DNA of 64,000 nucleotides from Candidatus Poseidoniia archaeon (lineage in GTDB: Archaea; Thermoplasmatota; Poseidoniia; MGIII; CG-Epi1), in assembly GCA_030754655.1 (NCBI GenBank), contig JASLZX010000003.1, positions 15,449 to 79,448 on the forward strand, read 5' to 3'. The position numbers and the translations under genes are program-made. Within the stretch, counting starts at the first letter, position 1. The number at the start of each line of letters is the position of its first letter. The notes under the pieces are model-generated. The model saw only the letters and a program-made list of their open reading frames with translations. It was not told the origin of the DNA and did no database searches. Shown piece after piece: positions 1-34,633 of this stretch.

Positions 1-78
1 GCGCGGCGCACGGGCATGGCTTAAAAAAAAGGTGGGCGCCGGCGCAAAGGTGATTAAACCGGCGCGGGTGGCGGCCGC

Positions 79-525
79 ATGGGCGTCAGCGGCTTCCGCA
101 TCACCGGCATCGAGGCAAGGCGCCATCGCCGCAGCGGGCGGCCGCAGCAGGTGCGCATTGACCACAACACTACCGTGCTCTCGATTCGTGACACCGGCAA
201 GGAACGCGCGACGGTCGAATATCGCTACACCGTAAACTACGGCGGGCTGGGAATGGTCCAGCTCGACGGCGAAGTCACCTACGCCAGCGGCGACGGCGGA
301 ACCGCGAAAGAAGTGCAGAAGCTCTGGGAGCGCGACCACAAAATGCCAGACGGCGCCGCCGAGGAGGTGCACAACGCGGTCCTGTCGCAGGGGTCGTTCG
401 AAGTTTTCGTGCTGGCGCGCAAGCTAGGCCTGCCGCCACCGGTAAAGGTCGAAGTGCCGCAAGTCAAATTCCAGAAAGGCAAGGGCAAAACCAGCGGAAG
501 TACCGCCGGCCCCGAAGTGGCGTAG
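79..525 (+). CDS. hypothetical protein
   Basis: 148-aa ORF with strong GC3 codon bias typical of this genome; no recognisable motif; start uncertain. Confidence 0.4.
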   Translation: MGVSGFRITGIEARRHRRSGRPQQVRIDHNTTVLSIRDTGKERATVEYRYTVNYGGLGMVQLDGEVTYASGDGGTAKEVQKLWERDHKMPDGAAEEVHNAVLSQGSFEVFVLARKLGLPPPVKVEVPQVKFQKGKGKTSGSTAGPEVA

Positions 526-1470
526 ATGCGCCGCCATGCCTTCGAATGCCCGGTCTGCCAGGGTGAGCAGTCAATCCTGCTACCCGACGGTGATGCCAGC
601 GCGACCAGCATCTGCCGCGAATGCCGCAGCGAACTCGAGTTCCTGCCGGATGGCGACGCGGTGAAGGTCGTCCCCGCCGGTCCCCCGGCACCAGCCGGGA
701 CGCGCCGGCCCCCTGCCCAGCGACCGGGCGCGGCTGGCGAGTCGCCAGCCGCGGCCGCAACTGTGCCGGACGATTACCCGCGCTACCGCGGGTCGCCGCT
801 GCGCGAGCAGTCGAAGGCGGGCGGAACGCTCGCAATTGCACTGCTGATCCTGGCGGCGTCGCTCACCGGACTGACAAACGCCTGGTTTGTTCACATCATA
901 CCGGAGGTGAATGAGGGTGAACAGCAGGTCGGGATTACTGTCGAGGTCGCCAACACCACCGGACCGCTGGCCAATGTGACACTGCTGGTCGACGGCGCAG
1001 CCGCCAACCTGACGGCGAGCGAACCGGGGGCTTACACAACCACCGTGAGCAGCGGCATGCGCACGTTCGAGGTTACCGCACCGGGCCACCGTAATGGAAC
1101 CATGTTGGTCTTGGTCTATGTGCAAGACCTCGACATGGCTCCCACGGAGGGCGCCAACCTGTTCAAGTTTATACTTCTAGAGGGCGAAGGGGCGCCAGTC
1201 AAGCAGGAACAGGCGGAACAGGCCTTACTGCAGGGAATGCTTGCTTGGTGCCCGTTCCTGATACTCGCCTTCTCGCTCATCGGGCTCGGCGGCGCATGGG
1301 CCGCGTGGCAGCGCACTTCGTTCCTGGCAGCGCAAGTCGGGGCGCTCTTCAGCGCGCTGGCGCTCGGATTCCTGCTGGTGGGGCCAATCCTGGGGTTGAT
1401 TGCCCTTATCCTTTTGCAGCGACAGAAGCACGCCTTTTCCTTTAAAACGGGCGAGCATCCGCCACCGTGA
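526..1470 (+). CDS. membrane protein with N-terminal zinc-ribbon (CPxC...CxxC) and several TM helices
   Basis: N-terminal CPVCQG...CRECRS zinc ribbon, Pro-rich linker, hydrophobic TM segments, N-glycosylation sequons in predicted extracellular loop. Confidence 0.5.
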   Translation: MRRHAFECPVCQGEQSILLPDGDASATSICRECRSELEFLPDGDAVKVVPAGPPAPAGTRRPPAQRPGAAGESPAAAATVPDDYPRYRGSPLREQSKAGGTLAIALLILAASLTGLTNAWFVHIIPEVNEGEQQVGITVEVANTTGPLANVTLLVDGAAANLTASEPGAYTTTVSSGMRTFEVTAPGHRNGTMLVLVYVQDLDMAPTEGANLFKFILLEGEGAPVKQEQAEQALLQGMLAWCPFLILAFSLIGLGGAWAAWQRTSFLAAQVGALFSALALGFLLVGPILGLIALILLQRQKHAFSFKTGEHPPP

Positions 1471-3188
1471 CACTCACCGCCGGGCTCGAGGTGCACCAGC
1501 AGCTCGACTGCGGCAAGCTCTTCTGCAGCTGCCCCGCCGCCGACGGCAGCCCCGACCCCGGCTTCAGCCGGAGGCTGCACGCGACCGCCAGCGAGATGGG
1601 GCAGGTCGACGCGGCCGCCGCGGCCGAAAACGTGCGCGATTTCGGCTACCACCAGGGCGACGGCAACTGTCTAGTCGAGGCGGACGAGGAGCCGCCGCGC
1701 GGCCCCAACCCGGAGGCGGTCGAGGTCGCACTGCAGGTCGCCGGACTGCTCGGTGCGCAGCCGCTCGAGGAGATACATTTCATGCGCAAGGTGGTCGTCG
1801 ACGGCTCCAATACCACCGGCTTCCAGCGCACCGCACTGGTCGCCACTGGCGGCCGGCTCGACTACGACGGCGGCAGCGTCGACATCGAACAGCTCTGCCT
1901 TGAGGAGGATTCCTGCCGGCGCGGTGAAGGCGAGGACGAGTTCCTGCTCGACCGACTGGGGGTGCCACTGCTCGAGATTTCGACTGCGCCGCAGCTCCAC
2001 TCGCCCGAGGCGGTGCAGGCGGCGGCGCGCACGATGGGGCTGCTGCTGCGCGCCTGCCGCGTCCGGCGCGGGCTTGGGACCATAAGACAGGATTTGAACG
2101 TCTCGATTCCCCAGGGCGTGCGGGTCGAGCTGAAAGGCTTCCAGGACCTCGGAACAATGCCGCAAGTCGTCGAGCGTGAGATGGAGCGGCAGGCAATACT
2201 CGCCACCGTCGAAGCGTGCGAGCCCGGCCCCGCCATAGAAATTACGGCGCTGCTGAAGAAATCGCGCGAGGCGTGGGGCTGCCGGCTGCCGGGCTGGGCT
2301 AGTCTGCTCGGCTCGCCCGAATCCCCAGCAGACCACCCGCGGCTGGGGCGCGAGCTGGCCGACCACGCGCGCCGCGCCGGCGTGGCGGGGCTGCTACAGA
2401 GCGACGAACTGCCGGCGCACGGCGTCTCAGCGGAAGAGGCGGCGGTAATCGCCACCGAGCTCGATTGCAGGAAAGTGGACGCTTTTATACTGGTCTTCGA
2501 GAAAAAAACGCTTGCCAAAGCGGCGCTGGCGCGCGCCTGCAACCGCGCGCGGCAGGGCGGCGTGCCGCACGAAGTGCGGCGCGTGCTGGCCGAGGGCGGC
2601 AGCCGCTACCTGCGCCCCATGCCGGGCGCGGCACGCATGTATCCCGAGACCGATATTTCGCCGCTGCGACTGGCCGGGAACGCAGTCGAGCTGCCGCCGA
2701 CGCTCGCGGAGCGCATCGCGGTTCTGCCGCTGGGGGCGCAGCAAGCCGGGCAGCTAGTGCGCGCCAGACTTGACGCACGCTTCCACGCACTCGTTGCGGC
2801 GGGCGGTCCGCCGAAGACGGTCGCGCGACTGCTGCTGCACCAGTTGCCCGAGCTGCGGAAAGCGAGGCTACCGGCACCGTCCGAAGCGGTGCTCGGGGAA
2901 TTGCTCGCGGCGGTCGCCGACGGCAAGCTAGCGAAGGAAGGCGTCGAGGACGCACTGGCGGCGCTGGCGCGCGGTGAAGCGCTGCCGGAGCAGGCAGCGA
3001 GCGGTGCGGGCGAGCTGGACGCGTTCATCGAGCAGTTGCTCGCAGAGCGCAAGGACTTTGTGCAGCAGCGTGGGATGGAGGCGGTGGGGCCACTGATGGG
3101 AACCGTGATGGGCGAATTCCGCGGCCGGGTCGACGGTGCGCTGGTGAGCGAGCGGCTACGGGTGAAACTGGGGGAATTCCTTGGCTGA
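1467..3188 (+). CDS. gatE: Glu-tRNA(Gln) amidotransferase subunit E (archaeal GatE)
   Basis: N-terminal GLEVHQQLDCGKLFCSCP motif and overall GatE/GatB-like body; GTG start overlapping previous stop (GTGA). Confidence 0.85.
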   Translation: MTLTAGLEVHQQLDCGKLFCSCPAADGSPDPGFSRRLHATASEMGQVDAAAAAENVRDFGYHQGDGNCLVEADEEPPRGPNPEAVEVALQVAGLLGAQPLEEIHFMRKVVVDGSNTTGFQRTALVATGGRLDYDGGSVDIEQLCLEEDSCRRGEGEDEFLLDRLGVPLLEISTAPQLHSPEAVQAAARTMGLLLRACRVRRGLGTIRQDLNVSIPQGVRVELKGFQDLGTMPQVVEREMERQAILATVEACEPGPAIEITALLKKSREAWGCRLPGWASLLGSPESPADHPRLGRELADHARRAGVAGLLQSDELPAHGVSAEEAAVIATELDCRKVDAFILVFEKKTLAKAALARACNRARQGGVPHEVRRVLAEGGSRYLRPMPGAARMYPETDISPLRLAGNAVELPPTLAERIAVLPLGAQQAGQLVRARLDARFHALVAAGGPPKTVARLLLHQLPELRKARLPAPSEAVLGELLAAVADGKLAKEGVEDALAALARGEALPEQAASGAGELDAFIEQLLAERKDFVQQRGMEAVGPLMGTVMGEFRGRVDGALVSERLRVKLGEFLG

Positions 3189-4395
3189 GCAGGCGCTGAT
3201 TCTCGCCGCTGGCAAGGGCACCCGCATGCGTCCGCTGACGGCGCGGCTGCCGAAGCCGCTGCTGCCGGCCGGCGGCGCACCGTTTCTGGAGCACCAGCTG
3301 CGCGCGCTGGCCGAAGCTGGCGTAACGCACGTGGCGGTGCTGGTGGGCTACCGCATGCGCGAGGTGCACGAGGCGCTCGGCGACGGCCAGCGCTTCGGGC
3401 TCGAGCTGGATTTCCTGGTGCAGGAAGAGCAGCTCGGCACCGGCCATGCGGTGGCGCAGGCGGCCGGGAAGCTGGATGGCAATTTCTTCTGCCTGAATGG
3501 TGACACGCTCGTCACGACCGAAACGCTGCGGGCGCTCGCCAGCGCAAAATCCGTGCACGCCATGGCGGTCGCGCAGGTCGCAGACTGCAGCAGATACGGA
3601 CTGGTAAAGGCGCGCGAGGGAAAACTGGCGAGCATCATCGAGAAAGGCGCTGAAGGACTGGGCAAAATTAACGCCGGCATCTATCGCTTCGCGCCTTCCA
3701 TTTTCGAGGCGCTAGAGAGGCTGGAGCGGTCGCCGCGCGGCGAATTCGAGCTGACGACTGCGCTGGAGGCGATTGCAAAGCAGGTCGCGGTCGTCGACGT
3801 TGAGGGCGACTGGCTCGACCTAGGGCGGCCGTGGGACCTGCTGACGGCGAACGCGCTGCTGCTCACGCGGATGGAGCCATCCATCGAGGGAACCGTCGAA
3901 GAGGGTGTGGTGCTGGAGGGAGCGGTGCACGTCGCCGCCGGGGCGATAATCAAGGCGGGCAGCCGCATCGAAGGCCCGGTATGGGTCGGCCCCGGTGCGA
4001 CCGTCGGGCCGAACGCCTGCATCCGCGGTGCGACCATGCTGGGCGCCGGGGTGAAAGTAGGCGGTGCTTCGGAAGTGAAGAATTCAATTCTGATGGACGG
4101 GGCCAAGGCGCCGCACCACAATTACGTCGGCGATTCCATCCTGGGGCGCGACTGCAACCTTGGTTCGGGGACCAAGGTTGCCAACCTGCGCCACGACGGC
4201 GCCAACGTCTACGCCATCATCCGCGGCGAGCGGGTTGACAGCGGGCTGCGCAAGCTGGGCGTCATTCTGGGCGACGACGTCAAGACCGGCATCAACGCTT
4301 CGCTCAATGTCGGCACCGTCCTGGGCGAAGGGACGATTGTCGGCCCCGGACGCGTCGTCTCGGGCAGCTGGGCGGCCGGCTCCCGGATACTCTGA
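3181..4395 (+). CDS. sugar-1-phosphate nucleotidyltransferase with C-terminal left-handed beta-helix (GlmU/RmlA-like bifunctional enzyme)
   Basis: LILAAGKGTRMRPLT nucleotidyltransferase signature; C-terminal hexapeptide repeats; TTG start overlapping gatE stop. Confidence 0.75.
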   Translation: MAEQALILAAGKGTRMRPLTARLPKPLLPAGGAPFLEHQLRALAEAGVTHVAVLVGYRMREVHEALGDGQRFGLELDFLVQEEQLGTGHAVAQAAGKLDGNFFCLNGDTLVTTETLRALASAKSVHAMAVAQVADCSRYGLVKAREGKLASIIEKGAEGLGKINAGIYRFAPSIFEALERLERSPRGEFELTTALEAIAKQVAVVDVEGDWLDLGRPWDLLTANALLLTRMEPSIEGTVEEGVVLEGAVHVAAGAIIKAGSRIEGPVWVGPGATVGPNACIRGATMLGAGVKVGGASEVKNSILMDGAKAPHHNYVGDSILGRDCNLGSGTKVANLRHDGANVYAIIRGERVDSGLRKLGVILGDDVKTGINASLNVGTVLGEGTIVGPGRVVSGSWAAGSRIL

Positions 4396-5516
4396 TGCGG
4401 ATTCTCGAAGTAACGCCCTACTTCCACCCCCACTACGGTGGTGTCGAGTCGCACGTGCTAGGGCTGTCGATGCACCTGCAACAGCGCGGCCACACCGTCG
4501 AGGTCGTCACTTCACGCTACGCGCGCATGCCAGAGCAGGAGACGGTGCGTGGCTTGCCAGTGAACCGGGTGACGCAATGGCTGAACCTGTTCAACACCCC
4601 GGTCGCCCCCGGTTTTGGCGGGCACATCGCCGCGACCGAGGCAGATGTGGTGCATGTCCACTCGCCACCCCCTTTCACCGAGCTGTTCGCCGCGCGTGGC
4701 GCGGCGCGGGCGGGGAAGCCACTAGTCATCACCTACCACTGCGACCTGGAACTGCGCGGCCGGCTCGGCTCGCTGATGGTGCGCGGCTACCAGCGCTATG
4801 CTGGGAAGCGCCCGCTGCAAGCCGCGAAGCGCATTATCTCGACTACTGAAAGCTACGCCGCCACTTCGCGCGCGCTCTGGAACCAGGAGGTCGAGGTAGT
4901 GCCCAACGCGGTCGACACCGATCGCTTCCACCCTTCGAACAACAGCGAGCATCTCTGCAGCCGACTCTCGCCCGAAGGAGAGCCGCTGGCGCTCTTCGTC
5001 GGGCGGCTGGTGCCGCACAAGGGGGTCGACATCCTTATTCGCGCGCTATCGCGGCTCGAACGGGGGCGGCTGGTAGTGGTGGGCGACGGCCCCTACCGCG
5101 GCTGGCTCGAGAGGCTGGTGCGCAGTAAGGGGCTCGGGGAGCGGGTGGTCTTCACCGGCCCCATCGGCGACGCGTGGCTGCCCGCCTACTACGCCGCCTG
5201 CGACACCGTCGTGCTGCCGTCGACGTCGCGGCTCGAGGCGTTCGGCATCGTCGGCCTTGAAGGCATGGCGTCGGGCAAGCCACTCGTGTTGAGCGACATT
5301 CCCGGCGTGCGCGACGTCATCACCGGCGAAGAGGGGCATATCGTCGAGCCGCTCGACCCCGACGCACTCGCTGGCGCGCTGGAAAACATCTGGGATTACC
5401 CCGAGCGCGCGCGGCAGATGGGGAGGCGCGGGCGCGAACGCGCCGAGCGCGAATTCGCCTGGCCACGCGTCGCGGAGAAAATCGAGCAGGTGCTGGAAGC
5501 GGCCCTTTCGACCTAG
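4395..5516 (+). CDS. glycosyltransferase family 4 (GT4)
   Basis: MRILEVTPYFHPHYGGVESHV N-terminus and C-terminal GT4 catalytic region; ATG overlaps upstream stop (translationally coupled). Confidence 0.8.
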   Translation: MRILEVTPYFHPHYGGVESHVLGLSMHLQQRGHTVEVVTSRYARMPEQETVRGLPVNRVTQWLNLFNTPVAPGFGGHIAATEADVVHVHSPPPFTELFAARGAARAGKPLVITYHCDLELRGRLGSLMVRGYQRYAGKRPLQAAKRIISTTESYAATSRALWNQEVEVVPNAVDTDRFHPSNNSEHLCSRLSPEGEPLALFVGRLVPHKGVDILIRALSRLERGRLVVVGDGPYRGWLERLVRSKGLGERVVFTGPIGDAWLPAYYAACDTVVLPSTSRLEAFGIVGLEGMASGKPLVLSDIPGVRDVITGEEGHIVEPLDPDALAGALENIWDYPERARQMGRRGRERAEREFAWPRVAEKIEQVLEAALST

Positions 5517-7234
5517 GCCAGTTCCGTCTCGACCAATAAGCGACGCAATTCGTCGGCCGGCTTGCCCAGCGCTTCGAGCGACGCCACCTTGCCCGCCAGC
5601 GCTTCCGGGTCGGCGGCTCCGCAGCCAAGTGCGCCGTCGAATGCTTCGCTGGCGCGTTGCGCATCGCCATTTTCGAGCGCGCTCCAGCCCAACGCCAGCC
5701 ACGCCTCGAGCCGCGACGGCGCGAGCGCCGTTGCGGCTTCGGCCGCAGCCTGCGCTTCGCGGCTGCGGTCGAGCGCGTGCAGGCAACCACAGCGCGCCAG
5801 CGCCAAATCTGGGTCGTCGAGCGACAGGTACACGAGCGCCGCTTCCGGCTCGCGCGAAGCAAGGTGCAGTCCCAGCTGGCACTTTATATTTTCATCGTCA
5901 AGAAATTCAGCCTGCAAATCGGCGAGTGTTTTGCGCGCAGCATCCCACTCCTGCGCGCGCGACAGAAGCAGTCGACCGGAGCGGGAGCCGGGTTGCAGCT
6001 CGAGCGCGTTTTCGATAAGCGACAGCGCCTGCTCGTTGCGGTCCAGTTCCAGCATCGACTCCGCCAGCCGGAAGCGCGCGCGCGCCGACTCGGGATGCGC
6101 GACCAGCGCGTTGGTGTATTGCCGCGCCGCCTCGTCCAACATCCCGGCGTTGACCAGGATTTTGCCTTTCTCCATCCAGTCCAGGTCGCGCATGCGGTTG
6201 CGCGCCTGATTGTCCATCGCGCGCACCGCCTCGTCGTAGCACTGCAGTGCGTGCCGGGTCTCGCCGCGCTCGCGGCTGGTGTCGCCCAGCGCGACCCAGC
6301 ACATGACGTGCTGACCGTCGGCCGCCAGGCCAAGATTCAGCGTGCGCCGTGCCTCATCGGGGCGGCCGAGCGCCAGCAGGCTGCGCGCCAGCGCCTCGTG
6401 GTAGTCGGGGTCCCCGTCCTCGAGCTCGAGCGCCGTCTCCAAGAACTCGAGACCCTCCTCGGGGCGGCCGAGCCGCGCCAGCGCGCGGCCTTTGGCCATC
6501 CAAGCGTAGTGAAATGTGGGATCCATTTCGAGCGCCTGCTCGTGGTATAGAATGGCCTCCTCGTAGCGGTCCAAGTGATCGAGTGCATTGCCGATGTTGT
6601 TGACGGCGATGACGTATTCCGGGTCGATATCGAGTGATTTCTGGTAGAACTCGATGGAGAGCTCGTATTCGCCCTGGTTATACTGGACGTTGGCGAGATT
6701 ATTCCACGCAATCTTGTCGCGTGGGTCCAGTTCTACGGCGCGCTGATAGTAATCCTTGGCGTCCGCCAGCCGCCCCGAGAGCTGCAGCGTGTAGCCGTAG
6801 TTGTACCACGCCACCGCGTAGGTGGGGTCGGCGCGCATCGCCTCGTCGTAGCAGCGCATCGCCTCGTTCCAGCGATCGAGCATGAAGTTGGCAAAGCCGC
6901 GGTTGTTCCACGCCGGCGCGTTGCGCGGCTCCAGCTCCAGCGCGCGGCCGTACGCCTCGACTGCCTGCGCGTAGCGCTCTAGACGCTGCAGCGCGTCGCC
7001 GCGACGCACATAGTAGCGCGCGATGTCGGGCGCCAACTCGCACGCCCGCTGGTAGGCGCGCAGTGCCCGGGCGGGGTTGCGGCGCGCCATCTCGGCCATA
7101 CCGATGCTGTTGTGGAGCGAAGGGTCCTCCGGCGCCAAGTCCGCCGCCCTGCGGAAGCAGGAAATCGCCTTGCGGAATTTCCTTTCGCGGACCAGCGCCT
7201 CGCCCTGTTCCACCAACTCCGCGACGTCAGGCAT
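5513..7234 (-). CDS. TPR-repeat protein
   Basis: Repeated A-W-xN-G / A-Y-xR-A-L TPR consensus throughout 573 aa. Confidence 0.75.
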   Translation of the reverse strand: MPDVAELVEQGEALVRERKFRKAISCFRRAADLAPEDPSLHNSIGMAEMARRNPARALRAYQRACELAPDIARYYVRRGDALQRLERYAQAVEAYGRALELEPRNAPAWNNRGFANFMLDRWNEAMRCYDEAMRADPTYAVAWYNYGYTLQLSGRLADAKDYYQRAVELDPRDKIAWNNLANVQYNQGEYELSIEFYQKSLDIDPEYVIAVNNIGNALDHLDRYEEAILYHEQALEMDPTFHYAWMAKGRALARLGRPEEGLEFLETALELEDGDPDYHEALARSLLALGRPDEARRTLNLGLAADGQHVMCWVALGDTSRERGETRHALQCYDEAVRAMDNQARNRMRDLDWMEKGKILVNAGMLDEAARQYTNALVAHPESARARFRLAESMLELDRNEQALSLIENALELQPGSRSGRLLLSRAQEWDAARKTLADLQAEFLDDENIKCQLGLHLASREPEAALVYLSLDDPDLALARCGCLHALDRSREAQAAAEAATALAPSRLEAWLALGWSALENGDAQRASEAFDGALGCGAADPEALAGKVASLEALGKPADELRRLLVETELA

Positions 7235-8428: not shown

Positions 8429-9949
8429 GTGAAAGTCGAGCTTGACGGCGGTTCGCTCACGATTGGGCTGCTCGCGAGAGTCGCGAGCGACGGCGCGAGC
8501 GTCTCGCTGGCGCCCGCGGCGCGAAAGCGTATCGCTGCCAACCGCGCCATGCTGGAAGAGAAAATCGCCGCGCACGAGGTGATGTATGGAATCACTACCG
8601 GCATCGGTGAGTTCTCCGAGCATACGCTGACGCCCGACGAGCTGCGCGACTTCCAGCGCTTCCTGGTCTATTCGCACGCCGCTGGCATCGGCGAGCCGCT
8701 GCCGGCGGCTGTCGTGCGCGGCGCGATGTGCGGCCGCGCCAATGTCCACTGCCACGGCCACTCCGGGGGGCGGCCAGCGGTGACCGACGCGCTCGTCGGC
8801 GCGCTGAACGCGGGGGTGACGCCGGTCGCGTGCGAGAAAGGCTCGGTCGGCGCGTGCGGCGACTTGGCGCCGATGTCGCAGGTAGCGCTCTGCCTGATGG
8901 GCGAGGGCGAGGCGTTCTACCGCGACGAGCGGATGGACGCCACCGCTGCCCTGGCGAAAGCGGGACTCGAGGCGCTCGAGCTCGAGGCGCGCGACGGGCT
9001 GGCACTGATTAACGGTTCGAACGTGCTAACAGCGTGGGCGGCGCTGCTGTTGCACGACACGCAGCACTGGTTCAAGCTGCACGACATCGCCGCGGCGATG
9101 ACGCTCGAGGCGCTGCTCGCCAACCAAAAGCCATACGACGCGCGACTGCACGAACTGCGCGGCTTCCGCGGCGCGCAGGAAGTGGCGGGCAACTTGCGGA
9201 AGCTGATGGCTGACAGCCCCATCCTGGCGGCGCACGGCGAGAAGGTGCAGGACGCCTACTCGATGCGCTCGACGCCGCAAGTAGCGGGCGCACTGCGCGA
9301 CGCAGTGCGCCACGCCATCGGCGAAGTGGAGACCGAGCTGAACGGTGTCGGCGACAATCCCATATTCCTTACCGAAGAGAAGGAGGTGCTCACGGGCGCC
9401 AACTTCCAGGGCACACCGGTCGCACTGCCGCTAGAGATGGTCGCGACCGGGTTGAGCATGATTGCCGTATTGAGCGAGCGACGGCTGAACCGGCTCACCA
9501 ACCCTGCGCTCTCGGCGGGGCTGCCGCCCTTCCTGAGCGAGAAGCCGGGGCTCCACTCAGGGATGATGCTGGCGCAATACACTGCCGACGCGCTGATTGC
9601 CGAAGCGCGCATCCTGTCGCACCCCGCCGTCAACCAGTCCATCCCCGCCGCCGCCGACCAGGAGGATTTCGTCTCGATGGGGCTGACCACGATGCAGAAA
9701 GCACAGCAGATTCTCGACAACTGCTTCGGCGTGCTCGCCATTGAGATGATGGCCGCCGCGCAGGCGCTAGACCTGCGCGGCGACGAGCCGGCGGCCGGCA
9801 CCGCTGCCGCACGCGGGGTAATTCGCAAGCACGTTTCGCACCTTGACGAGGACCGGCCGCTCTACCGCGACCACAACCGGCTGGTGCCGCTGCTGCGCTC
9901 GCCCGACATCACCAGCGCGGTCGAGGCGGCCGTCGGTGAGCTGGCCTAG
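8429..9949 (+). CDS. histidine/aromatic amino-acid ammonia-lyase family protein (MIO-dependent lyase/aminomutase fold) with Ala-Cys-Gly at the MIO position
   Basis: YGITTGIGEF, GSVGACGDLAPMSQ and NGSN motifs typical of the HAL/PAL family; proposed GTG start at 8429 (VKVELDGG). Confidence 0.8.
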   Translation: MKVELDGGSLTIGLLARVASDGASVSLAPAARKRIAANRAMLEEKIAAHEVMYGITTGIGEFSEHTLTPDELRDFQRFLVYSHAAGIGEPLPAAVVRGAMCGRANVHCHGHSGGRPAVTDALVGALNAGVTPVACEKGSVGACGDLAPMSQVALCLMGEGEAFYRDERMDATAALAKAGLEALELEARDGLALINGSNVLTAWAALLLHDTQHWFKLHDIAAAMTLEALLANQKPYDARLHELRGFRGAQEVAGNLRKLMADSPILAAHGEKVQDAYSMRSTPQVAGALRDAVRHAIGEVETELNGVGDNPIFLTEEKEVLTGANFQGTPVALPLEMVATGLSMIAVLSERRLNRLTNPALSAGLPPFLSEKPGLHSGMMLAQYTADALIAEARILSHPAVNQSIPAAADQEDFVSMGLTTMQKAQQILDNCFGVLAIEMMAAAQALDLRGDEPAAGTAAARGVIRKHVSHLDEDRPLYRDHNRLVPLLRSPDITSAVEAAVGELA

Positions 9950-13408: not shown

Positions 13409-16400
13409 TCAGAGCGGGTTGCCGTCTTCGTTGCAGGGAACTTCTTCGCCCGAGTCGGGGTCGATGTAGTAGAAGGAACCGTCCTCGTCCTCGTAGATTT
13501 CGACCTCATACTCTTCTTCGTCGTCGCCTACTTCGTCGTCGTAGTCGTCAGCGAAGCCGAAGTCGTCGTCAGAGGAAACCGCGGCACCGCTAGCACTCAG
13601 GAGGTCCATCAGACTGGTCTCCTCCCGCGCCTCCTCGCGCGCAGTGCGGACAGACTCGATAGCCTCAATCTTACGCTGGGTTGACTCGTATGCCTTGGTA
13701 ATCTCGGTAAGCTTGGAGAACTGCTCATCGCGCTCCATCTTGAGCACGTACGCCAGCTGTTCCTCAATCTGCCCCAGTTCGGTGCGGGTGTCGACCAGTC
13801 TGGTCAGCGTACCGTGGAACCGCTCGGCGAGCAATTCCATGTCGGGGTCGGCCATGTCAAGCTCGAGCTGTTCCGCTGCCGCGGTTTCGGCTGCCTCGGC
13901 AGCCTCCAGTTCGGCTAGCCGCTCGGTGGCGGCAATCTGCTGGGCCTTGACCAGTATTTCGTTGAAGGCCGAAAGGTGGGCCTCCAGCTTGGTCGCGACG
14001 CGAGATGCGTCGTAAGCTGCTACCTCGAGCAGTTCCTCGCGACCCTTGGAGGTCTCAAGGCTCTGTTCGACTTCTGCCAGACGTGCTCTTTCTTGCTTGT
14101 TCATGCTTTCACCAGTAAATCCGCTCGTGCGGACGTTATACGCTGCGGCGGCCATTAGCAGACCCAAAACCAGTCCGCCCACCAGAACGATGAAGCTGCG
14201 GTTCCAGTTGTCTGCCACCATTACACTCTGGGCTTCCGCCACCACTACTTCCTGAGCCACAGTGGTAGTCACCGCACCAGAGTTGTCAACTGCGGTGACC
14301 TGCACCTGATAGGTGCCGGGCGCCGCATAGGCGTGCTTCAGGTTCAGCGTGCTCTGATCAGTCAGGTCACTGCCACTGAAGGAAATTTGCGAGCCATCGC
14401 CGAAGTCGACCACCAACATCGCGATGCTGCCGTCGCCATCGGTCGGGACTGCCAGGACAAACTCGACTGTGTGCTCCTCGACCACGCTGACGGTGTTGCC
14501 GTCAATCGTGATGCCCTCATCCACACTCACCGAGGGTGCCGGGACCAAGGGTGCGCTGTTAGCGGCAGTTACCGGCGCGCTAAAGCTCGTGACCTGTCCG
14601 AGGCTGTCGGTTGCGACTAACGAGATGGTGTAGTCGCCTGCCATATCGTAGGTGTGGTCCTGCGAGGCGCCGCCGTCAACAATGCTGGCTCCGTCACCGA
14701 AGTCCCAGTCAATCGTCAGTCCCGCTGCGGCGTCGCTCAGCGCAAAGATGTGCGCGGAGCCGGCCATGGTGCCGCCCGTGCTGAGCGACCAGCCGGAGAT
14801 GTCCTGCGGCAGGTTGGGGGTAATCGAGATGGTCTGCGAAGCGCCAGTACCGTCAATCGACGGCGTGACTGTGAAACCGGCGGAGCTCGCCGCGGTCGCG
14901 CCAGCCGGGACCATGACGGTCAACAGGACCGTCTGGAAACCGCTCTTGTCGATGCGGAAGCTGGTTGTCGAGAAACGCAGGTTGTCGTGGCCCGCAGTGA
15001 CGACTATGGTGTAGTCGGTCGCGACGCTGCCGGTATTGGTCACTGTAACAACCGTGGTCGCCGAAGTTCCGGGGTTGAGCTGGAAGCTGTCATCAGCCGC
15101 GCTCACGCCTGCGCTCCGCGCATCACTGGAGATGTCGATTGTCGCGCTTGCGCTGTCATCGTCAGTTGCAGTCGATATAGAGTAACTGCCACCAGCCGGA
15201 GTATCTTCGGGGACATTAATCCAGACGCGGAAGTCGAAGCTGGCGCCGGCTTCGAGTATGTCGGTGGAGGTGGTGTTCAGCACTGCCCAGCCGTTAGCCT
15301 CACTGTTGCCGCTGATACCAAAGGAGTAGGTTGCGTCACCGTTACCGGTGTTGGTGACGGTGCCGGAAATCTGGAAGGAGTCGCCCGGATACGCTGCGGA
15401 AACCGTGCCGAGCGTTATGCTCGAGCCAGTCACCAGCCCGGCGCTGCTGTCGGCCGAGTCGCTGTCGGAAGCGCCGCCGGTCGCGGTGAGCGTTACCGTG
15501 TCGCCCGCACCGTGCGCTGCGCCTGCGGGGACGTCGTGCGTGACCGTAACTAGCCGCACCTCGCCCATGCCGAGGCTCATCCCGCTGGAGGAAGCAGATG
15601 AGGACCAGCTTCCACTGGTTGAAATTACGAACGTGTTATCGTAGTTACCGGTGTTCTGCACCGTGAAGGTGTGGATCGTGGAACTGCCCGGTGCGCCTTC
15701 CTGCGTGCTGGAAACTGCGGTGACTGCGACGTCCTGCACTAGCCCGACTGAATAAATCATGCTGTGCGCATCGGTCGCGGTGCCGTCGTTCTGCGACGCG
15801 ATATCGACGTCAATCTGGTTCGGAACACCGTAGGCCAAGAAGGGGACGCTGAGCGTCAGGTCGAAGGTGGCTGAGCTGTCGTAGGCTACGTCAACCGTCG
15901 CCGGGAAGCTCAGGTCCCAGCTCGCGAAGTTGCTGGCACCGATGGTGTAGGTGTCATCGGCGTTGCCGCTGTTGGTAATCGTGAAGGTGATTGTGCGGTC
16001 GCCCGGCGCGCCCGAGGTATCTGCCGGATCGTCTAGGTCTGCGCCGCCGACATAGTCGACGAAGAAGCTCGCTGTCCCGGCGTCGCCGGTTGCGGGCGCA
16101 CCGACACTGTCGGTGGCACTGAAGGTAACAGTGCGAGTGCCACCACGGTCAATGAGGTCTAACAGGTCAAGCGTGGCTGAATAGGTACCATCACTGTTGT
16201 CGTTGAGCGTGAGGGTTCCATAGTGCTGGAGGTCGGCCGAAACTGTAAGTGAATCCCCATCGTCCTCGTTAATGTCACTGGCGCTGGCAGTGAAGGTGTA
16301 GGTGTCACCGGCACGTTCTACAGTCCCGTTGGCCGTGAAGGCCGGCGCGTCGTTGACCGCAATCGAGCCGCCCGAAAGCTGTGCGGCGTCGTTGGCACCA

Positions 16401-17884
16401 TTGTTGGCGTCGAAAGCCACGGAATGGGTGCCCCAAGCCATGGTGCCGGTGTAGGCATATTCGGCGCCAGCGGCGTCAGCCGGGCTCTCCGAGGCGTTGG
16501 TGCGTGAGAGCGAGAAGAAATTGCTGCCGACCGTCACGCTGATGGTTGAGGCGTTGGTGCCGTTGTACTCGTGGTAGCGGACCGAGAAGTTGAAGTTGTC
16601 GTTCTCGCCGCCGCTGGCTGGCGAAACTGCCGCGTCGGTCAGCCACGGAATATCGGTGCGGACCCAGACTGAGCCGGCGACCGCGTTGGAATCATCCATG
16701 CTGTCGTTCGAACTGGCAGCGAACACCGTCTTACCAGCTGCGAATACCTGGCTGTGCTCGTACTGCTTACCGTCGGTGTAGTCACCATCGTTTGGGTCGG
16801 AGGCGAACATCGGTACTGCGGTGCCGTCACAGCCATCGCTCAGGTCGTCGTCGCCGACGCAGAGCGTTATCGCACTGGGTGCCTGGTCGTTAGCGTCGGT
16901 ATAGGTGACGGTAACCGTGGCGGGGTCTACTGGTAGTGGTACCGTTGAGGGTGTTGCCGTAATAGAGCTCAGGACCGGTTCGTCATTAACGCGAGGGCCA
17001 TCGTAGGTATCGGAGGTTGCGTCGTCCTCCCCGTCAGAACTGGTGAAGTAGTAGGTGTGCATCCCGAGGCCAATATCTCCCGCTAGGGTGAAGGCGTACT
17101 CGTAATTCTCGCCATTGGTGTAATCACCATCGTTGCTGCTGGAGGAAGTCATTGGGTATCCGGTATCATCGACAAAGAGGAGTACCTCACTGGGAGCGTC
17201 GCCGTCAAGGTCGGTGTAGGTGACCTGGAAACCCACCGTGTCACTCGCGGAGATAGGCCAGTTGGCTTCTCCCGGGGAAACTTGGCCGTCCGTGAGAGTC
17301 GGGGCGCGGTTCTGCTGGACCAGCGGGCGGCTCAGGTCCCATGCTTCCTCGTCTCCGACCTGACACTCCTCCGTGCCATCGAGCCAGATACAGCTCATGC
17401 TGGCTATGTAGAAGGTGACGTCCCCATGGTAGTCTGAGGGTGCCCAAACAAACTCCCACGACAAAGATTCGTCTCCGTCATCTTCGGAGTTGCTCATGAT
17501 GTAGTCGTAACCATCCGAAGCGGTAACGAGGGTTATATCGCCCACCTCAATCGAGAAATTGCCGACTGAGTCGCCATTACCGTTGATAACCACCATCTCA
17601 AAACCGAACTTGTCGTGACCGCTGCCACTCACAGTTACGTCGATGTCTACGTCCTCGCCGGGCACGTACTCTGCAACGCTGAGCGTTACGTCCAGCGAAC
17701 TCTCACCATCGTTGGGATTAGCGTCGGTGTGGCATGACGTGCAGTCATTATCACCTGGCGCGCTGGAATAGCCTGGGTCAATATCTCCGCCCTGATGTCC
17801 CTGCGCATAACCTGCAGCGATGACGGCTATCACCGTCACAATCAGGATACCTGCCAATAGTTGTTCCGGCCGACGTGTCAGCAT
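13409..17884 (-). CDS. giant type-I membrane surface protein with multiple PKD/Ig-like domains, single TM, cytoplasmic coiled-coil and poly-acidic C-terminal tail
   Basis: N-terminal signal anchor (MLTRRPEQLLAGILIVTVIAVIAAG), PKD signatures (WDFGDG...HTY, VDFGDGS...HAY), TM LVGGLVLGLLMAAAAY, then heptad-like E/A/L-rich segment and DDDFGFADDYDDEVGDDEEEYEVEIYEDEDG tail. Confidence 0.8.
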   Translation of the reverse strand: MLTRRPEQLLAGILIVTVIAVIAAGYAQGHQGGDIDPGYSSAPGDNDCTSCHTDANPNDGESSLDVTLSVAEYVPGEDVDIDVTVSGSGHDKFGFEMVVINGNGDSVGNFSIEVGDITLVTASDGYDYIMSNSEDDGDESLSWEFVWAPSDYHGDVTFYIASMSCIWLDGTEECQVGDEEAWDLSRPLVQQNRAPTLTDGQVSPGEANWPISASDTVGFQVTYTDLDGDAPSEVLLFVDDTGYPMTSSSSNDGDYTNGENYEYAFTLAGDIGLGMHTYYFTSSDGEDDATSDTYDGPRVNDEPVLSSITATPSTVPLPVDPATVTVTYTDANDQAPSAITLCVGDDDLSDGCDGTAVPMFASDPNDGDYTDGKQYEHSQVFAAGKTVFAASSNDSMDDSNAVAGSVWVRTDIPWLTDAAVSPASGGENDNFNFSVRYHEYNGTNASTISVTVGSNFFSLSRTNASESPADAAGAEYAYTGTMAWGTHSVAFDANNGANDAAQLSGGSIAVNDAPAFTANGTVERAGDTYTFTASASDINEDDGDSLTVSADLQHYGTLTLNDNSDGTYSATLDLLDLIDRGGTRTVTFSATDSVGAPATGDAGTASFFVDYVGGADLDDPADTSGAPGDRTITFTITNSGNADDTYTIGASNFASWDLSFPATVDVAYDSSATFDLTLSVPFLAYGVPNQIDVDIASQNDGTATDAHSMIYSVGLVQDVAVTAVSSTQEGAPGSSTIHTFTVQNTGNYDNTFVISTSGSWSSSASSSGMSLGMGEVRLVTVTHDVPAGAAHGAGDTVTLTATGGASDSDSADSSAGLVTGSSITLGTVSAAYPGDSFQISGTVTNTGNGDATYSFGISGNSEANGWAVLNTTSTDILEAGASFDFRVWINVPEDTPAGGSYSISTATDDDSASATIDISSDARSAGVSAADDSFQLNPGTSATTVVTVTNTGSVATDYTIVVTAGHDNLRFSTTSFRIDKSGFQTVLLTVMVPAGATAASSAGFTVTPSIDGTGASQTISITPNLPQDISGWSLSTGGTMAGSAHIFALSDAAAGLTIDWDFGDGASIVDGGASQDHTYDMAGDYTISLVATDSLGQVTSFSAPVTAANSAPLVPAPSVSVDEGITIDGNTVSVVEEHTVEFVLAVPTDGDGSIAMLVVDFGDGSQISFSGSDLTDQSTLNLKHAYAAPGTYQVQVTAVDNSGAVTTTVAQEVVVAEAQSVMVADNWNRSFIVLVGGLVLGLLMAAAAYNVRTSGFTGESMNKQERARLAEVEQSLETSKGREELLEVAAYDASRVATKLEAHLSAFNEILVKAQQIAATERLAELEAAEAAETAAAEQLELDMADPDMELLAERFHGTLTRLVDTRTELGQIEEQLAYVLKMERDEQFSKLTEITKAYESTQRKIEAIESVRTAREEAREETSLMDLLSASGAAVSSDDDFGFADDYDDEVGDDEEEYEVEIYEDEDGSFYYIDPDSGEEVPCNEDGNPL

Positions 17885-17965
17885 ATTTACACCTTTTTTG
17901 CGTGAGACTGAAGTCCTCCGTAATGGGCGGACTGACCTCTCTCGTAGCGCCTTCATACCCAAGGA

Positions 17966-17981
17966 CTTTATTTAAATTTAC
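17966..17981. promoter_or_regulatory. AT-rich element (CTTTATTTAAATTTAC) in a divergent intergenic region, candidate TATA/BRE
   Basis: Only strongly AT-rich stretch between the divergent giant PKD gene (-) and PQQ/TPR gene (+). Confidence 0.25.
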
Positions 17982-18066
17982 TTGTTCGGTAAAGCGCCTT
18001 CCCGGCGTGCAGGAAAACAGGTGGCGGGGCAAGCGGATAAATAGCTCAGGGCTTGCGCCGCCGCCC

Positions 18067-19413
18067 ATGCCCGAAACGTCCCGATTCCGGCTGGTCCTGC
18101 CCGGTCCGGCCCTCAGCCTGGCGGTCGCCGCCGATGGCTCGACCATCGTTGCGGGGGACCGCAATGGAAACCTCACCGTCTCGGACGGGGAGGGAGCGCT
18201 GCTATGGCAACGCAAGCTGGGCGAAGGCATCCACGGCGTCGCAGTCTCGCGCGACGGGCAGCTGATTGTGTGCGGTAGCCAGGACTGCCAGCTGCGGACG
18301 TTCACCCGCGCGGGGGAGCTCGAGTGGGAACAGCCACTTGGCAAGTCGGTCTGGTCTTTAGCGATGGACCCCGGCGGCAACTTCATCGCCACCGGCACCG
18401 GCGACTCGGTCGCGTTCTACACCGATGGCGGCATCCTGGTCTGGGAGTACGAAACCGCGCGCGCGATGGTCGGCGTCAGTGTCTCGCGCGCCGGGTCGCG
18501 AATTATCGCCTGCGGGGACGAGCAGCTCTTCTGCCTCGATGGCGAGGGAGCCTTGCTGTGGCAGAAGAAGCGTGGCGACTCGCTGTGGGACGCCGCCATC
18601 AGCGAGGATGGCGGGCGCGTCTTCCTCGGCGGCTGGGACCGCAAGGTGCACTGCCTCGACGGCAGCGGCGAGGAGCGCTGGGAATACCTGACTGACGGTT
18701 ACGTGCGCGCAGTCTGCCCGACCACCGACGGCGGGGTGCTGGCCGCCTCGCACGACGGCTGCATCTACCGGCTCTCGCCGGCGGGCGACGCGCTGGCAGT
18801 GCGGCGGCCGGGCGGCGAGCTTACCTCGGTGAGCTGCAGCGCGAGCCTCGCGCTGGCGGTCGCCGGCACCGGCACCGACGTGGTCGCCTACCAGATGGAC
18901 ATAACCGACACGGTCGTGCCGGCGGCGACGCCAGCTCCCGCAGCGGAGCCCGAGGAGGATAACCTGTTCGGCTTCGGCATGTTCGGCGACATCGAGCCCG
19001 ACACCAGCGGGCTAGGCAACTACGAGCCCGGCACCGCCACGCCACCCGTAACCGGCACAGCGGGCGAGGGCGGCGAATTCCGCGAATTCGCCGCCGAGAT
19101 GGTGAAGGAGGACGTGCGCAACTACCTGCGGCTCGGGAACGTCGCCTGGCGGGGGGGCCGCTTCGCGCGCGCAGCCGAGCATTACGAGCGCGCAACGCAG
19201 GTCGCGCCGGACGAACCGCGCGGCTGGCACAACCTGGCGGTCTGCCGCTACTACCTCGCGCGCAAGTCCAACCCGGACGATATCGAGGGAGCGGTGCGAC
19301 AAGCGTACGAGCCGCTGCGCAGCGCCAACCGCAGCGACGCGCAGTACGGACCGGCGCTGGCAACGCTCGAATATTTTGCCGAGCTGTTGAAGCTGCTAGA
19401 GGATATCGAGTAA
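18067..19413 (+). CDS. PQQ-like beta-propeller repeat protein with C-terminal TPR-like region
   Basis: Repeated G-x-L-W / DG-x-L-xx-D motifs characteristic of PQQ/BamB-like propeller blades; ATG at 18067 chosen to avoid overlap with the divergent gene. Confidence 0.65.
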   Translation: MPETSRFRLVLPGPALSLAVAADGSTIVAGDRNGNLTVSDGEGALLWQRKLGEGIHGVAVSRDGQLIVCGSQDCQLRTFTRAGELEWEQPLGKSVWSLAMDPGGNFIATGTGDSVAFYTDGGILVWEYETARAMVGVSVSRAGSRIIACGDEQLFCLDGEGALLWQKKRGDSLWDAAISEDGGRVFLGGWDRKVHCLDGSGEERWEYLTDGYVRAVCPTTDGGVLAASHDGCIYRLSPAGDALAVRRPGGELTSVSCSASLALAVAGTGTDVVAYQMDITDTVVPAATPAPAAEPEEDNLFGFGMFGDIEPDTSGLGNYEPGTATPPVTGTAGEGGEFREFAAEMVKEDVRNYLRLGNVAWRGGRFARAAEHYERATQVAPDEPRGWHNLAVCRYYLARKSNPDDIEGAVRQAYEPLRSANRSDAQYGPALATLEYFAELLKLLEDIE

Positions 19414-19415
19414 TT

Positions 19416-20525
19416 TCAGGCCAGCTCGACCACGGTCGCGAAGTAGTAACTGTACTGGAGCGTTAGCACCCAGTCGTTGCCGTTGTCAAGGTCGAACACC
19501 AAACCAATCGAGGGGGCGTTGTGGCAGGTTACCGCTAGCGTCCAGTCACCGCCCCCCTTGCCGCTGAAGTCGCCGCCCGCCAGCAACTGCGCGTAGATGT
19601 CGGCGCCGGACTCGCCCTCCATCTCGCGCGCGGCCGGGGCTGAGTCGAGGACCGTGAAGTTGACCGAGAGGTCGCCGCTGGTCGAGCGCGCCGTCTCGCG
19701 GGCGCCCCAGGCGCTGTCGCCTCGCAGCTCGAAATCGTCGGGGAAGAGCCCCAGCGCATCCGCCGCTTCATCTTCGCTCCACTCGAGGCGGAGGGTGACG
19801 CTGGTAACGTTGTAGGGCAGCGTTTCGAGCCATTCGGTCATGTCGCCCTCCGCTGTCCAGTCCGGAACGGTCACTGTGCGGGTGGTTTCGCTGAAGCCGA
19901 CGCTGTAGTTGCGCAGCCGCACTTCGGCCCACGTTGAAGCTGTTGCCGTAAGGTTCTCGGCGTCGGTGACTACCAACGTGACCGAGTAGTTGCCGGGCGC
20001 CGAGTAGTTGTGGAACGGCCGCGCGCCCGAGCCAAGCACACCGTCGCCGAACTCCCACGCCCAGTCCAGCACGCCCTCGGGGTCGCTCGAGTTGGAGCCG
20101 TCGAACCGCAACTGCTCATGCACGCGCGCCTGTAATCCGGGACCGGCGTCCGCGGTCGGCGGCAGGTTGCGGTGCATGATTTCGACGCTGGCAGTCGCCG
20201 CGCCGGTCGCGCCATCCGGGGCGACGGCGGTCAGCCGCACTGCGTAGGTACCTTCGTCTGTGTAGGTATGGGCTGGCGCCGCACCGACAATGCCGTTGCC
20301 GTCGCCGAACTCCCAGTAATATGTCGTGCCGGACGGCTGTGAGCCAAGCAGGCTGAATTGCGCCGAGTCGCCCTCGATGATACCCTCCGGCACCACAATC
20401 TCGGCGTTCTCCAGCGTCCCCGGTCCGGCATCGAGGCAGCCGGCCATGAGCAGGAGGGCGGCAAGCAGCAGGGCAGGGCGCACGCGGGCGCAGCAGCATG
20501 GTGTTAAAGGATTGTGCGCGACCAT
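19416..20525 (-). CDS. secreted lipoprotein with two PKD domains
   Basis: Lipobox-like LLLMAGC after a hydrophobic N-terminus; WEFGDG...HTYTDEGTY and WEFGDG...HNYSAPGNY PKD signatures. Confidence 0.7.
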   Translation of the reverse strand: MVAHNPLTPCCCARVRPALLLAALLLMAGCLDAGPGTLENAEIVVPEGIIEGDSAQFSLLGSQPSGTTYYWEFGDGNGIVGAAPAHTYTDEGTYAVRLTAVAPDGATGAATASVEIMHRNLPPTADAGPGLQARVHEQLRFDGSNSSDPEGVLDWAWEFGDGVLGSGARPFHNYSAPGNYSVTLVVTDAENLTATASTWAEVRLRNYSVGFSETTRTVTVPDWTAEGDMTEWLETLPYNVTSVTLRLEWSEDEAADALGLFPDDFELRGDSAWGARETARSTSGDLSVNFTVLDSAPAAREMEGESGADIYAQLLAGGDFSGKGGGDWTLAVTCHNAPSIGLVFDLDNGNDWVLTLQYSYYFATVVELA

Positions 20526-34556: not shown

Positions 34557-34600
34557 CGGCCCGCAGGCGGGGGGTGGATAACAGCCTGCGTTACAATCAC

Positions 34601-34606
34601 TTATAG
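34601..34606 (+). promoter_or_regulatory. TATA-like hexamer (TTATAG) about 30 nt upstream of the giant adhesin ATG
   Basis: Spacing compatible with a leaderless or short-leader archaeal transcript. Confidence 0.25.
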
Positions 34607-34633
34607 CCCCGTGCGCTCTGTCACACTCCCGGG

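Follow-up and report, generated by a model that had tools for sequence, protein, structure and literature searches.

A 64,000-nucleotide stretch of contig JASLZX010000003.1 (hereafter the window), from a Candidatus Poseidoniia archaeon of Marine Group III (MGIII), carries at positions 13409 to 20525 three adjacent genes: one for a giant type-I membrane protein, one for a beta-propeller/TPR protein, and one for a candidate lipoprotein with two PKD domains (Table 1). Abundant in the ocean, Marine Group III and the Poseidoniia related to it have never been cultured, and their cell envelope is essentially unknown. The giant protein crosses the membrane once and ends in a tail of 241 residues (amino acids (aa) 1251-1491) that is, judged by sequence comparison, its most conserved part and its core. 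An earlier description of this DNA made from the letters alone (the sequence-only reading) had treated the tail as an appendage of an adhesin; that view is not sustained, as the tail is the part most conserved and persists without the ectodomain in CG-Bathy1.

Table 1. Features of the three-gene locus, with positions in the window (AF2, AlphaFold2; pLDDT, predicted local distance difference test score)
Feature	Residues (aa)	Window position	Strand	Basis or remark
Giant type-I membrane protein gene	1,491 from ATG	13409..17884	(-)	stop codon at 13409-13411
N-terminal hydrophobic segment (signal peptide or signal anchor)	9-27	17804..17860	(-)	Kyte-Doolittle scan
Choice-of-anchor-V domain, with CTSCH	21-165	17390..17824	(-)	NF041895
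Variable Ig-like array (Big_9, Ig_VWA7, FixG_C, CARDB-like)	~200-1030	14795..17287	(-)	Pfam/NCBIfam
Two membrane-proximal PKD domains	~1031-1215	14240..14794	(-)	PF00801, PF18911
Single transmembrane helix	1230-1250	14135..14197	(-)	hydrophobicity scan and AF2 model
Helix 1, predicted cytoplasmic	1263-1345	13850..14098	(-)	AF2 helix 38-120; invariant columns
Helix 2, predicted cytoplasmic	1349-1431	13592..13840	(-)	AF2 helix 124-206; alignment
Disordered acidic linker with interspersed F/Y, DDDFGFADDYDDE		13499..13591	(-)	pLDDT below 50; alignment
C-terminal three-stranded beta mini-domain, IYEDEDGSFYYIDPDSGEEVPCNEDGNPL	29 residues	13412..13498	(-)	AF2 pLDDT ~84
Divergent intergenic spacer, giant gene versus propeller/TPR gene	182 bp	17885..18066		sequence read
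Beta-propeller/TPR gene, product predicted cytoplasmic	448	18067..19413	(+)	
7-bladed WD40-like beta-propeller	1-280	18067..18906	(+)	model pLDDT ~95; Foldseek
Short conserved motif in disordered linker, (E)PMFGFGMFD.P.PDT(T/S)G, here EDNLFGFGMFGDIEPDTSG		18955..19023	(+)	invariant G304, F306, P311
C-terminal TPR-like helical domain	338-440	19078..19386	(+)	five helices, pLDDT 65-77
Candidate extracellular lipoprotein gene (2xPKD)	369	19416..20525	(-)	
Two PKD domains of the candidate lipoprotein	47-111 and 120-195			followed by a C-terminal domain without family match

The arrangement is the one first described, with the propeller/TPR gene divergent from the giant gene and convergent with the two-PKD gene, and positions and orientations agree. 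The reading frame of the giant gene is intact in the window, and the same 1,491-aa protein is called, with the same neighbours, on 16 independent metagenome contigs, so the open reading frame (ORF) is real and not a frameshift artefact; a split of this ORF by a frameshift, which the sequence-only reading had named as fatal to its description, does not occur. A longer, TTG-initiated version of the ORF reaching up to 17962 was rejected, since it overlaps the neighbouring gene and has no support from gene calls. The start of the propeller/TPR gene is best placed at 18067, because gene calls and the N-termini of homologs agree on it. Within the spacer between the divergent genes, two AT-rich, TATA-like boxes (TTTATTTAAATTT and GATAAATAG) are putative promoter elements, and GGTG precedes the ATG of the giant gene. 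The stop codons of the convergent propeller/TPR and 2xPKD genes are separated by 2 base pairs (bp).

The giant protein has just two hydrophobic segments in the Kyte-Doolittle scan, one at its N-terminus and one corresponding to the transmembrane (TM) helix, and the ORF, the Pfam and NCBIfam profiles, and the hydrophobicity scan agree with the sequence-only reading on a signal or anchor, PKD/Ig-like repeats, and one internal TM segment. Before the TM helix, the protein scores above the cut-off for a choice-of-anchor-V domain (NF041895, 62.8 bits against 42) and above the thresholds for PKD (PF00801, 64.2 bits against 23.5; PF18911, 63.6 against 27; two stretches each), and Ig-like matches (Big_9, Ig_VWA7, FixG_C, and HYDIN-like) extend across approximately aa 500-930 in the Pfam and NCBIfam searches. 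Membership of choice-of-anchor T (NF041740, 47.5 bits against a cut-off of 70) and of the PACE-CTERM putative S-layer proteins (NF033506, 40.4 bits against 110) was rejected, the similarity in both cases being partial and limited to Ig repeats. The N-terminal ~200 aa are missing in more distant MGIII members, and the choice-of-anchor-V domain is limited to the closest relatives and some sister lineages. Inside this domain, at aa 46-50 (window ~17735-17749, minus strand), lies CTSCH, with the counterparts CASCH in protein P0046 and C-x5-CH in locus L050 and protein P0054; the first two fit the CXXCH pattern of c-type cytochromes, and the third has a wider spacing. Judging from the residues, such a motif at the tip of the protein could bind heme or a metal, or form a disulfide loop.

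Several features bear on the side of the membrane to which the tail belongs. We took a type-I protein to have an N-terminal signal and one TM segment, extracellular-type domains before it and basic residues after it, and the giant protein has all of these. An N-terminal signal or anchor followed by extracellular-type domains and then by a single TM helix puts the tail on the side opposite to the ectodomain. An arginine, lysine, or histidine directly follows the TM helix in every homolog, and N-glycosylation sequons are kept to the ectodomain (59 in the ectodomain against 1 in the tail, 41 against 0, and 25 against 0 in homologs), both of which point to a cytoplasmic tail, as do the Cys4 zinc ribbons, typical of intracellular proteins, in which the tails of sister lineages end. 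In a stand-alone form of the TM helix and tail, described below, the flank before the TM helix is acidic and SRRK follows right after it. Computational rather than experimental, these observations argue strongly for type-I topology with the ectodomain outside and the tail on the cytoplasmic side, as had been proposed.

The sequence-only reading was right that a cytoplasmic extension exists and wrong about its length, which it had put at about 280 residues. In an AF2 model of the TM helix and tail, built on a 12-sequence alignment, the TM helix is followed by a helix (model residues 38-120), a break, a second helix (124-206), a disordered acidic stretch (207-237), and a beta unit (238-259); with a predicted template modelling score (pTM) of 0.22, the model does not define how the tail helices pack against each other. 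The two ~83-residue helices are separated by a conserved (D/E)PD that forms a three-residue break, or kink, and each has a conserved core: EELLEV(S/A)AYDASR..KLE.H..AF in helix 1 and ERFH..L..LV..R..L..IE..LA..LKMERDEQ in helix 2. As for the heptad-like coiled coil suggested earlier, 3.5-residue hydrophobic periodicity is significant against shuffled controls in helix 2 (p=0.01) and marginal in helix 1 (p=0.086). Of the poly-acidic tail suggested earlier, the acidic linker stands (it reads DFGDFGDFG in relatives), and the rest is instead a separately folded, nearly invariant beta mini-domain. Acidic FG-type motifs occur in the linkers of both the tail and the propeller/TPR protein: DDDFGFADD in the former and LFGFGMFGD (EPMFGFGMFD in relatives) in the latter. 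No Pfam or NCBIfam family matches aa 1251-1491, apart from a sub-threshold PepSY match; a search of the PDB with a tail profile returned the GreA coiled coil as its sole match (E 0.016), and self-BLAST found no internal repeats at E<=1e-3.

The mini-domain follows the consensus (E)YEVEIYEDEDG(S/T)(F/Y)YYIDPD(S/T)GEEVPC(D/N)EDGN(P/A)L, nearly invariant in all 38 of the 38 copies read, and is conserved as protein and not as DNA, because amino-acid identity is 0.91 and third-codon-position identity 0.39. It has no significant match in the PDB, either by sequence or by fold (Foldseek). The closest likeness is to WW and other three-stranded beta-meander mini-domains, since it too has three antiparallel strands in a length of ~30 residues, with a core of G-x-(F/Y)-Y-Y-x-(D/N), and matches WW weakly in Pfam (20 bits) and non-significantly in Foldseek; it differs in lacking both signature tryptophans, which in WW lie 20-22 residues apart, and in having an invariant cysteine and a D/E-rich surface. 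A WW identity (PF00397) was rejected, the best scores being 20.1 bits (P0070) and 11.5 bits (P0028) against 26.9 and the mini-domain having no tryptophan at all. An identity as PepSY was also rejected, the match lying below the cut-off, and so was a reading of the mini-domain as a degenerate zinc ribbon, for which hhalign against the Cys4 ribbons of sister lineages gave a probability of 0.1%. In distant tail homologs (P0045, P0046, L047, and P0064), the place of the mini-domain is taken by a Cys4 zinc ribbon, which closes a longer poly-acidic stretch.

The window holds no second copy of the mini-domain, and a search with a profile of the mini-domain by itself gave nothing beyond 22 short fragments. 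It is found in several other protein contexts and so behaves as a small mobile domain: it opens proteins of the P0065/P0039 type, ahead of a zinc ribbon and SHOCT; it follows a zinc ribbon in P0062, which is polytopic; it occurs in P0068; and it forms the C-terminus of helical proteins 165-175 aa long (P0070, P0072, and P0073). In locus L052 (positions 1-6518), a mini-domain protein with zinc ribbon and SHOCT lies in a block of nine co-directional, overlapping small genes without assigned function, and in P0038 the mini-domain is joined to an N-terminus that matches the viral peptidase family phrog_459 (E 7e-42). From its gene content, a block of the L052 type may represent a viral or mobile element of these archaea; IMG/VR, scanned for the P0065-type mini-domain protein, gave no match.

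The tail has a narrow distribution. A query with it gave 39 clusters, each of them from a marine metagenome or from Thermoplasmatota, an exhaustive profile search found 36 proteins among 1.84 billion representatives, and 36 loci turned up when one genome per species was scanned. Those labelled below phylum belong to Marine Group III or are of Poseidoniia type (Poseidoniales, Poseidoniia, Thalassarchaeaceae), the others carrying generic archaeal labels, and the guanine-plus-cytosine (GC) content of tail-bearing genomes spans 35% to 66%. The closest relatives of the window are L007 (Cayman_92_shallow), L009, and L008. Across MGIII clades, identity is 53-60% in the tail, 40-48% in the propeller/TPR protein, 40-46% in the lipoprotein, and ~30% in the ectodomain. 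Among close strains, the rate of nonsynonymous change (dN) is 0.033 in the TM helix and tail helices against 0.095-0.165 in the Ig arrays, and its ratio to the synonymous rate (dN/dS) is 0.1 to 0.25 in all regions of the giant gene, indicating purifying selection. Between the window and L007, dS is 0.03 for the PKD domains, TM helix, and tail (13412-14794) and 0.50 for aa 663-1030 (14795-15900); this jump inside the gene, between strains that are nearly identical otherwise, indicates a recombination breakpoint and replacement of the distal ectodomain.

In most lineages, the extracellular part is extended to an Ig-like/PKD stalk of 1,000-2,300 aa. CG-Bathy1 (L040 and L042; P0027, P0028, and P0043) has instead a stand-alone protein of 260-270 aa that consists of a short N-terminus, the TM helix, both tail helices, the acidic linker, and the mini-domain, with no ectodomain, and its gene in L040 and L042 lies at the syntenic position, directly divergent from the propeller gene. 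This form is probably derived, because outgroup lineages carry the giant form, and its retention shows that the cytoplasmic module is functional in its own right. In P0066, a soluble relative, zinc ribbons stand on both sides of helix 2. The tail frame is broken in two relatives, by an in-frame stop in L047 (15764-15790, AES*PDIERL) and by a frame break in L023 (~9000-9420), which are either assembly errors or pseudogenes.

The neighbouring propeller/TPR protein had been called PQQ-like, which turns out to be a profile label and no more: the generic Pfam repeat profile PQQ_2 passes (54.7 bits against 27.6), and scores for the PQQ-dependent dehydrogenases (TIGR03075, 31 bits against 480) and BamB (TIGR03300, 51 bits against 285) are far below their cut-offs. 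Both memberships were rejected, also because the modelled propeller is 7-bladed rather than 8-bladed and has no signal peptide. The model is WD40-like, and its Foldseek neighbours are Tup1, WDR5, WDR61, RACK1, a prokaryotic WD40 domain, and 7-bladed designer propellers, with target-normalised TM-scores (TMt) up to 0.89, which makes the fold one of a peptide-binding type. TPR membership of the C-terminal domain is marginal, with TPR_14 at 27.5 bits against 23.5 and the remaining TPR profiles below cut-off; the sequence EGGEFREFA sits between the linker motif and this domain. The full-length family comprises ~36 clusters, and no signal peptide was found in any of ~25 homologs. Since the first residues, in addition, are already propeller strands, the protein would be cytoplasmic, and its sequence and model therefore suggest a protein of scaffold type that shares the tail's side of the membrane.

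The product of the third gene begins with a signal peptide that carries a lipobox, LMAG-C30. We required of a lipobox a hydrophobic N-terminus followed by [LVIM][ASTVIP][GAS]C with a conserved cysteine, and this pattern is present, the G-C being kept in all full-length homologs read (in the variants PGC, AGC, and SGC), which upholds the lipoprotein signal of the sequence-only reading. The two PKD domains score 76.1 and 124.1 bits (PKD_4 giving 124) against thresholds of 23.5 and 27. On this sequence evidence, the protein is a lipoprotein candidate that would lie outside the cell.

The three genes keep together. The order PKD-lipoprotein (forward), propeller/TPR (reverse), and giant or tail gene (forward) holds in all complete MGIII loci inspected, and the trio is adjacent wherever a complete tail, with both helices, is found. 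It is also intact in the sister lineages L043, L046, L047/L048, L049, and L050, in which identity is 42-48% in the tail and 31-33% in the propeller and in whose loci other genes nearby were gained or exchanged (SDR, class-V aminotransferase, PhoU, GxGYxYP, and a zinc-ribbon protein). The tail and propeller/TPR families are equally narrow, with 36 proteins and ~36 clusters. On balance, we consider a functional link among the three genes probable. The functional cell-surface module proposed earlier thus survives as a conserved trio and not as a purely cell-surface one, with the propeller/TPR protein lacking a signal peptide and predicted to be cytoplasmic.

What the trio might do can be sketched as follows. 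We tentatively favour, at a probability a little short of even, a three-gene envelope module of MGIII and its sister lineages, built around a clade-specific transmembrane tether whose tail docks a WD40/TPR scaffold; the oligomerisation and all protein-protein contacts of the module are those we infer. The two amphipathic helices, as a coiled coil or a helical hairpin, would oligomerise the giant protein under the membrane, and the flexible acidic/aromatic linker would offer a terminal docking domain, the mini-domain in MGIII and the Cys4 zinc ribbon in the sister lineages. The terminal domain, the acidic linker, or both might then recruit the co-encoded cytoplasmic WD40-like propeller/TPR scaffold. 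Outside the cell, the 2xPKD lipoprotein could associate with the two membrane-proximal PKD domains of the giant protein, whose fast-evolving, recombining Ig/PKD stalk would most plausibly act in adhesion or as a surface coat. The whole module would thus physically couple a surface array to a cytoplasmic scaffold. In a more far-reaching form, which we think unlikely, it would be an outside-in coupling system of planktonic archaea, in which a recombining adhesion stalk is linked to a WD40/TPR protein recruited by the cytoplasmic coiled coil and the mini-domain or zinc ribbon, a receptor-adaptor arrangement of the sort otherwise linked to cell-surface receptors of eukaryotes, and the mini-domains of L052 and P0038, in seemingly mobile or viral gene blocks, could be mimics that hijack the docking site.

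Several observations weigh against a coupling module and favour the absence of any functional link, in which case the giant protein would be an ordinary TM-anchored adhesin or S-layer-like coat, its tail would merely anchor or oligomerise it, and the neighbours would be there by inherited synteny. The genes for proteasome alpha, SBDS, an MptE-like protein, and an ABC ATPase on either side are also largely syntenic across the clade, so the adjacency of the trio may be inherited and not selected. The most remote relative, P0064 (L044/L045, 32% GC), has helix 2 alone in common with the tail and lacks propeller and PKD neighbours. Docking of the FG linker motif in cis, which would have hinted at a groove for the DFGDFG linker of the tail, was examined in the propeller model and rejected, since the motif is not confidently placed (pLDDT no more than 50 or slightly above at residues 309-315), and the Ig arrays are weakly similar to the putative S-layer family NF033506 mentioned above. 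However, a tail that outlasts the total loss of the ectodomain in CG-Bathy1 and ends in a nearly invariant mini-domain is hard to explain as a pure coat anchor, the trio holds together where other neighbours have been replaced, and the tail and propeller families share the same narrow distribution; we regard the absence of a link as a less probable explanation, although one to be taken seriously. Alternatively, the giant protein may be a transmembrane receptor, with an ectodomain that senses ligands or particles, a helical hairpin that signals as in chemoreceptors, and a C-terminal domain that recruits the WD40/TPR protein as an output adaptor. The layout, with an ectodomain, a TM helix, two equal long helices with a kink, a linker, and a tag, would by analogy parallel that of methyl-accepting chemotaxis proteins, and the neighbouring propeller has an adaptor-type fold. 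This is improbable, however: Pfam and NCBIfam searches detected neither HAMP nor MCPsignal, nor a kinase or any further output domain, the adjacent genes include none of the che or two-component kind, the form without an ectodomain would be unable to sense the outside, and the swapping of ectodomains by recombination resembles antigenic or adhesive variation. A membrane-organising or remodelling coiled-coil protein (in principle EzrA-, DivIVA-, or Vipp1-like) to which the ectodomain was added secondarily would account for the stand-alone form with its N-terminal TM segment and long helices, for the helices being the best-conserved region, and for the soluble P0066 with helix 2 between zinc ribbons. 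All outgroups carry the giant form, however, so that the short form is apparently derived, and no division genes are adjacent; we consider this reading unlikely.

Comparison with known systems places the parts of the locus without accounting for the whole. TM-anchored Ig/PKD surface proteins are a class already known, as are the ectodomain families. The giant protein shares with the archaeal or bacterial 'choice-of-anchor' Ig/PKD/CARDB-array proteins of NCBIfam a signal peptide, a choice-of-anchor-V domain, Ig-like/CARDB-like arrays, PKD domains, a single C-terminal TM helix, and fast-evolving distal domains; the known proteins stop soon after the anchor, whereas this one adds a conserved cytoplasmic module of 241 aa that is able to exist alone. 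Methyl-accepting chemotaxis proteins consist of an ectodomain, a TM segment, long paired helices, a flexible linker, and a C-terminal tag that tethers a partner, and the likeness to them is one of layout only, extending to an ectodomain, a TM helix, long helices, a linker, and a conserved C-terminal tag: the tail helices are shorter, their conserved part is not at the kink, and no che genes lie nearby. Membership of that family was rejected in the Pfam and NCBIfam searches, in which neither MCPsignal nor HAMP matched at E<=0.01 (E<=1 in the case of P0028). The SlaB stalk of the Sulfolobales S-layer is likewise a surface-layer component in which beta-sandwich domains occur together with a TM anchor and a long coiled coil. 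Its coiled coil lies outside the membrane, whereas the tail helices here follow the TM helix on the predicted cytoplasmic side, and sequence similarity was not detected. Tol-Pal (TolA, TolB, Pal, and CpoB) resembles the trio in its components only, namely a beta-propeller, a TPR domain, and a lipoprotein that are encoded together with a TM-anchored protein having a long helix and a small domain at its C-terminus; in Tol-Pal these work in the periplasm, in bacteria with two membranes, whereas here they are archaeal, the helices and the propeller/TPR protein are predicted to be cytoplasmic, and there is no match in sequence or fold. WD40 scaffolds fused to TPR (WDR5, Tup1, RACK1, and prokaryotic WD40 proteins) are likewise 7-bladed (TMt up to 0.85-0.89) and cytoplasmic, but the propeller here is labelled PQQ_2/BamB-like by profiles and belongs to a narrow, clade-specific family with an FG-rich linker motif. 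The 241-aa module, the mini-domain, the stand-alone form, and the association with a WD40/TPR protein have no match in Pfam, NCBIfam, or the PDB, and full-text literature searches on surface proteins of MGIII or Poseidoniales found nothing on them.

The locus thus offers a handle on the envelope of these archaea: a conserved cytoplasmic module without family assignment, a 29-aa mini-domain kept nearly invariant across 35-66% GC, and a possible partner on the cytoplasmic side. A true coupling would show how a rapidly varying adhesive surface connects to the cell interior and would give annotation two new domain families; failing that, the tail is still a lineage marker and a case of an 'anchor' outliving its ectodomain.

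Two other regions of the window concern the cell surface. At 34634-38617 on the plus strand lies a gene for a second giant type-I surface protein, of 1,327 aa, with a signal peptide, CARDB, and a TM segment at aa 1251-1272, whose short cytoplasmic tail ends in a Cys4 zinc ribbon (CSGC...CPGC). Since this second giant protein also ends in a TM segment and a small cytoplasmic domain, a recurrent anchor design in this organism is suggested. GC content falls to 0.55-0.61 at 14001-18000 and 34001-38000, against ~0.66 elsewhere in the window, and these dips coincide exactly with both giant surface-protein genes. At 45372-49755 on the minus strand, a gene for a T2SSE/PilB3-like ATPase (758 aa) adjoins one for a membrane protein in which two or more TM segments are predicted, and from these gene products the locus resembles one for a type IV pilus or an archaellum-like structure.

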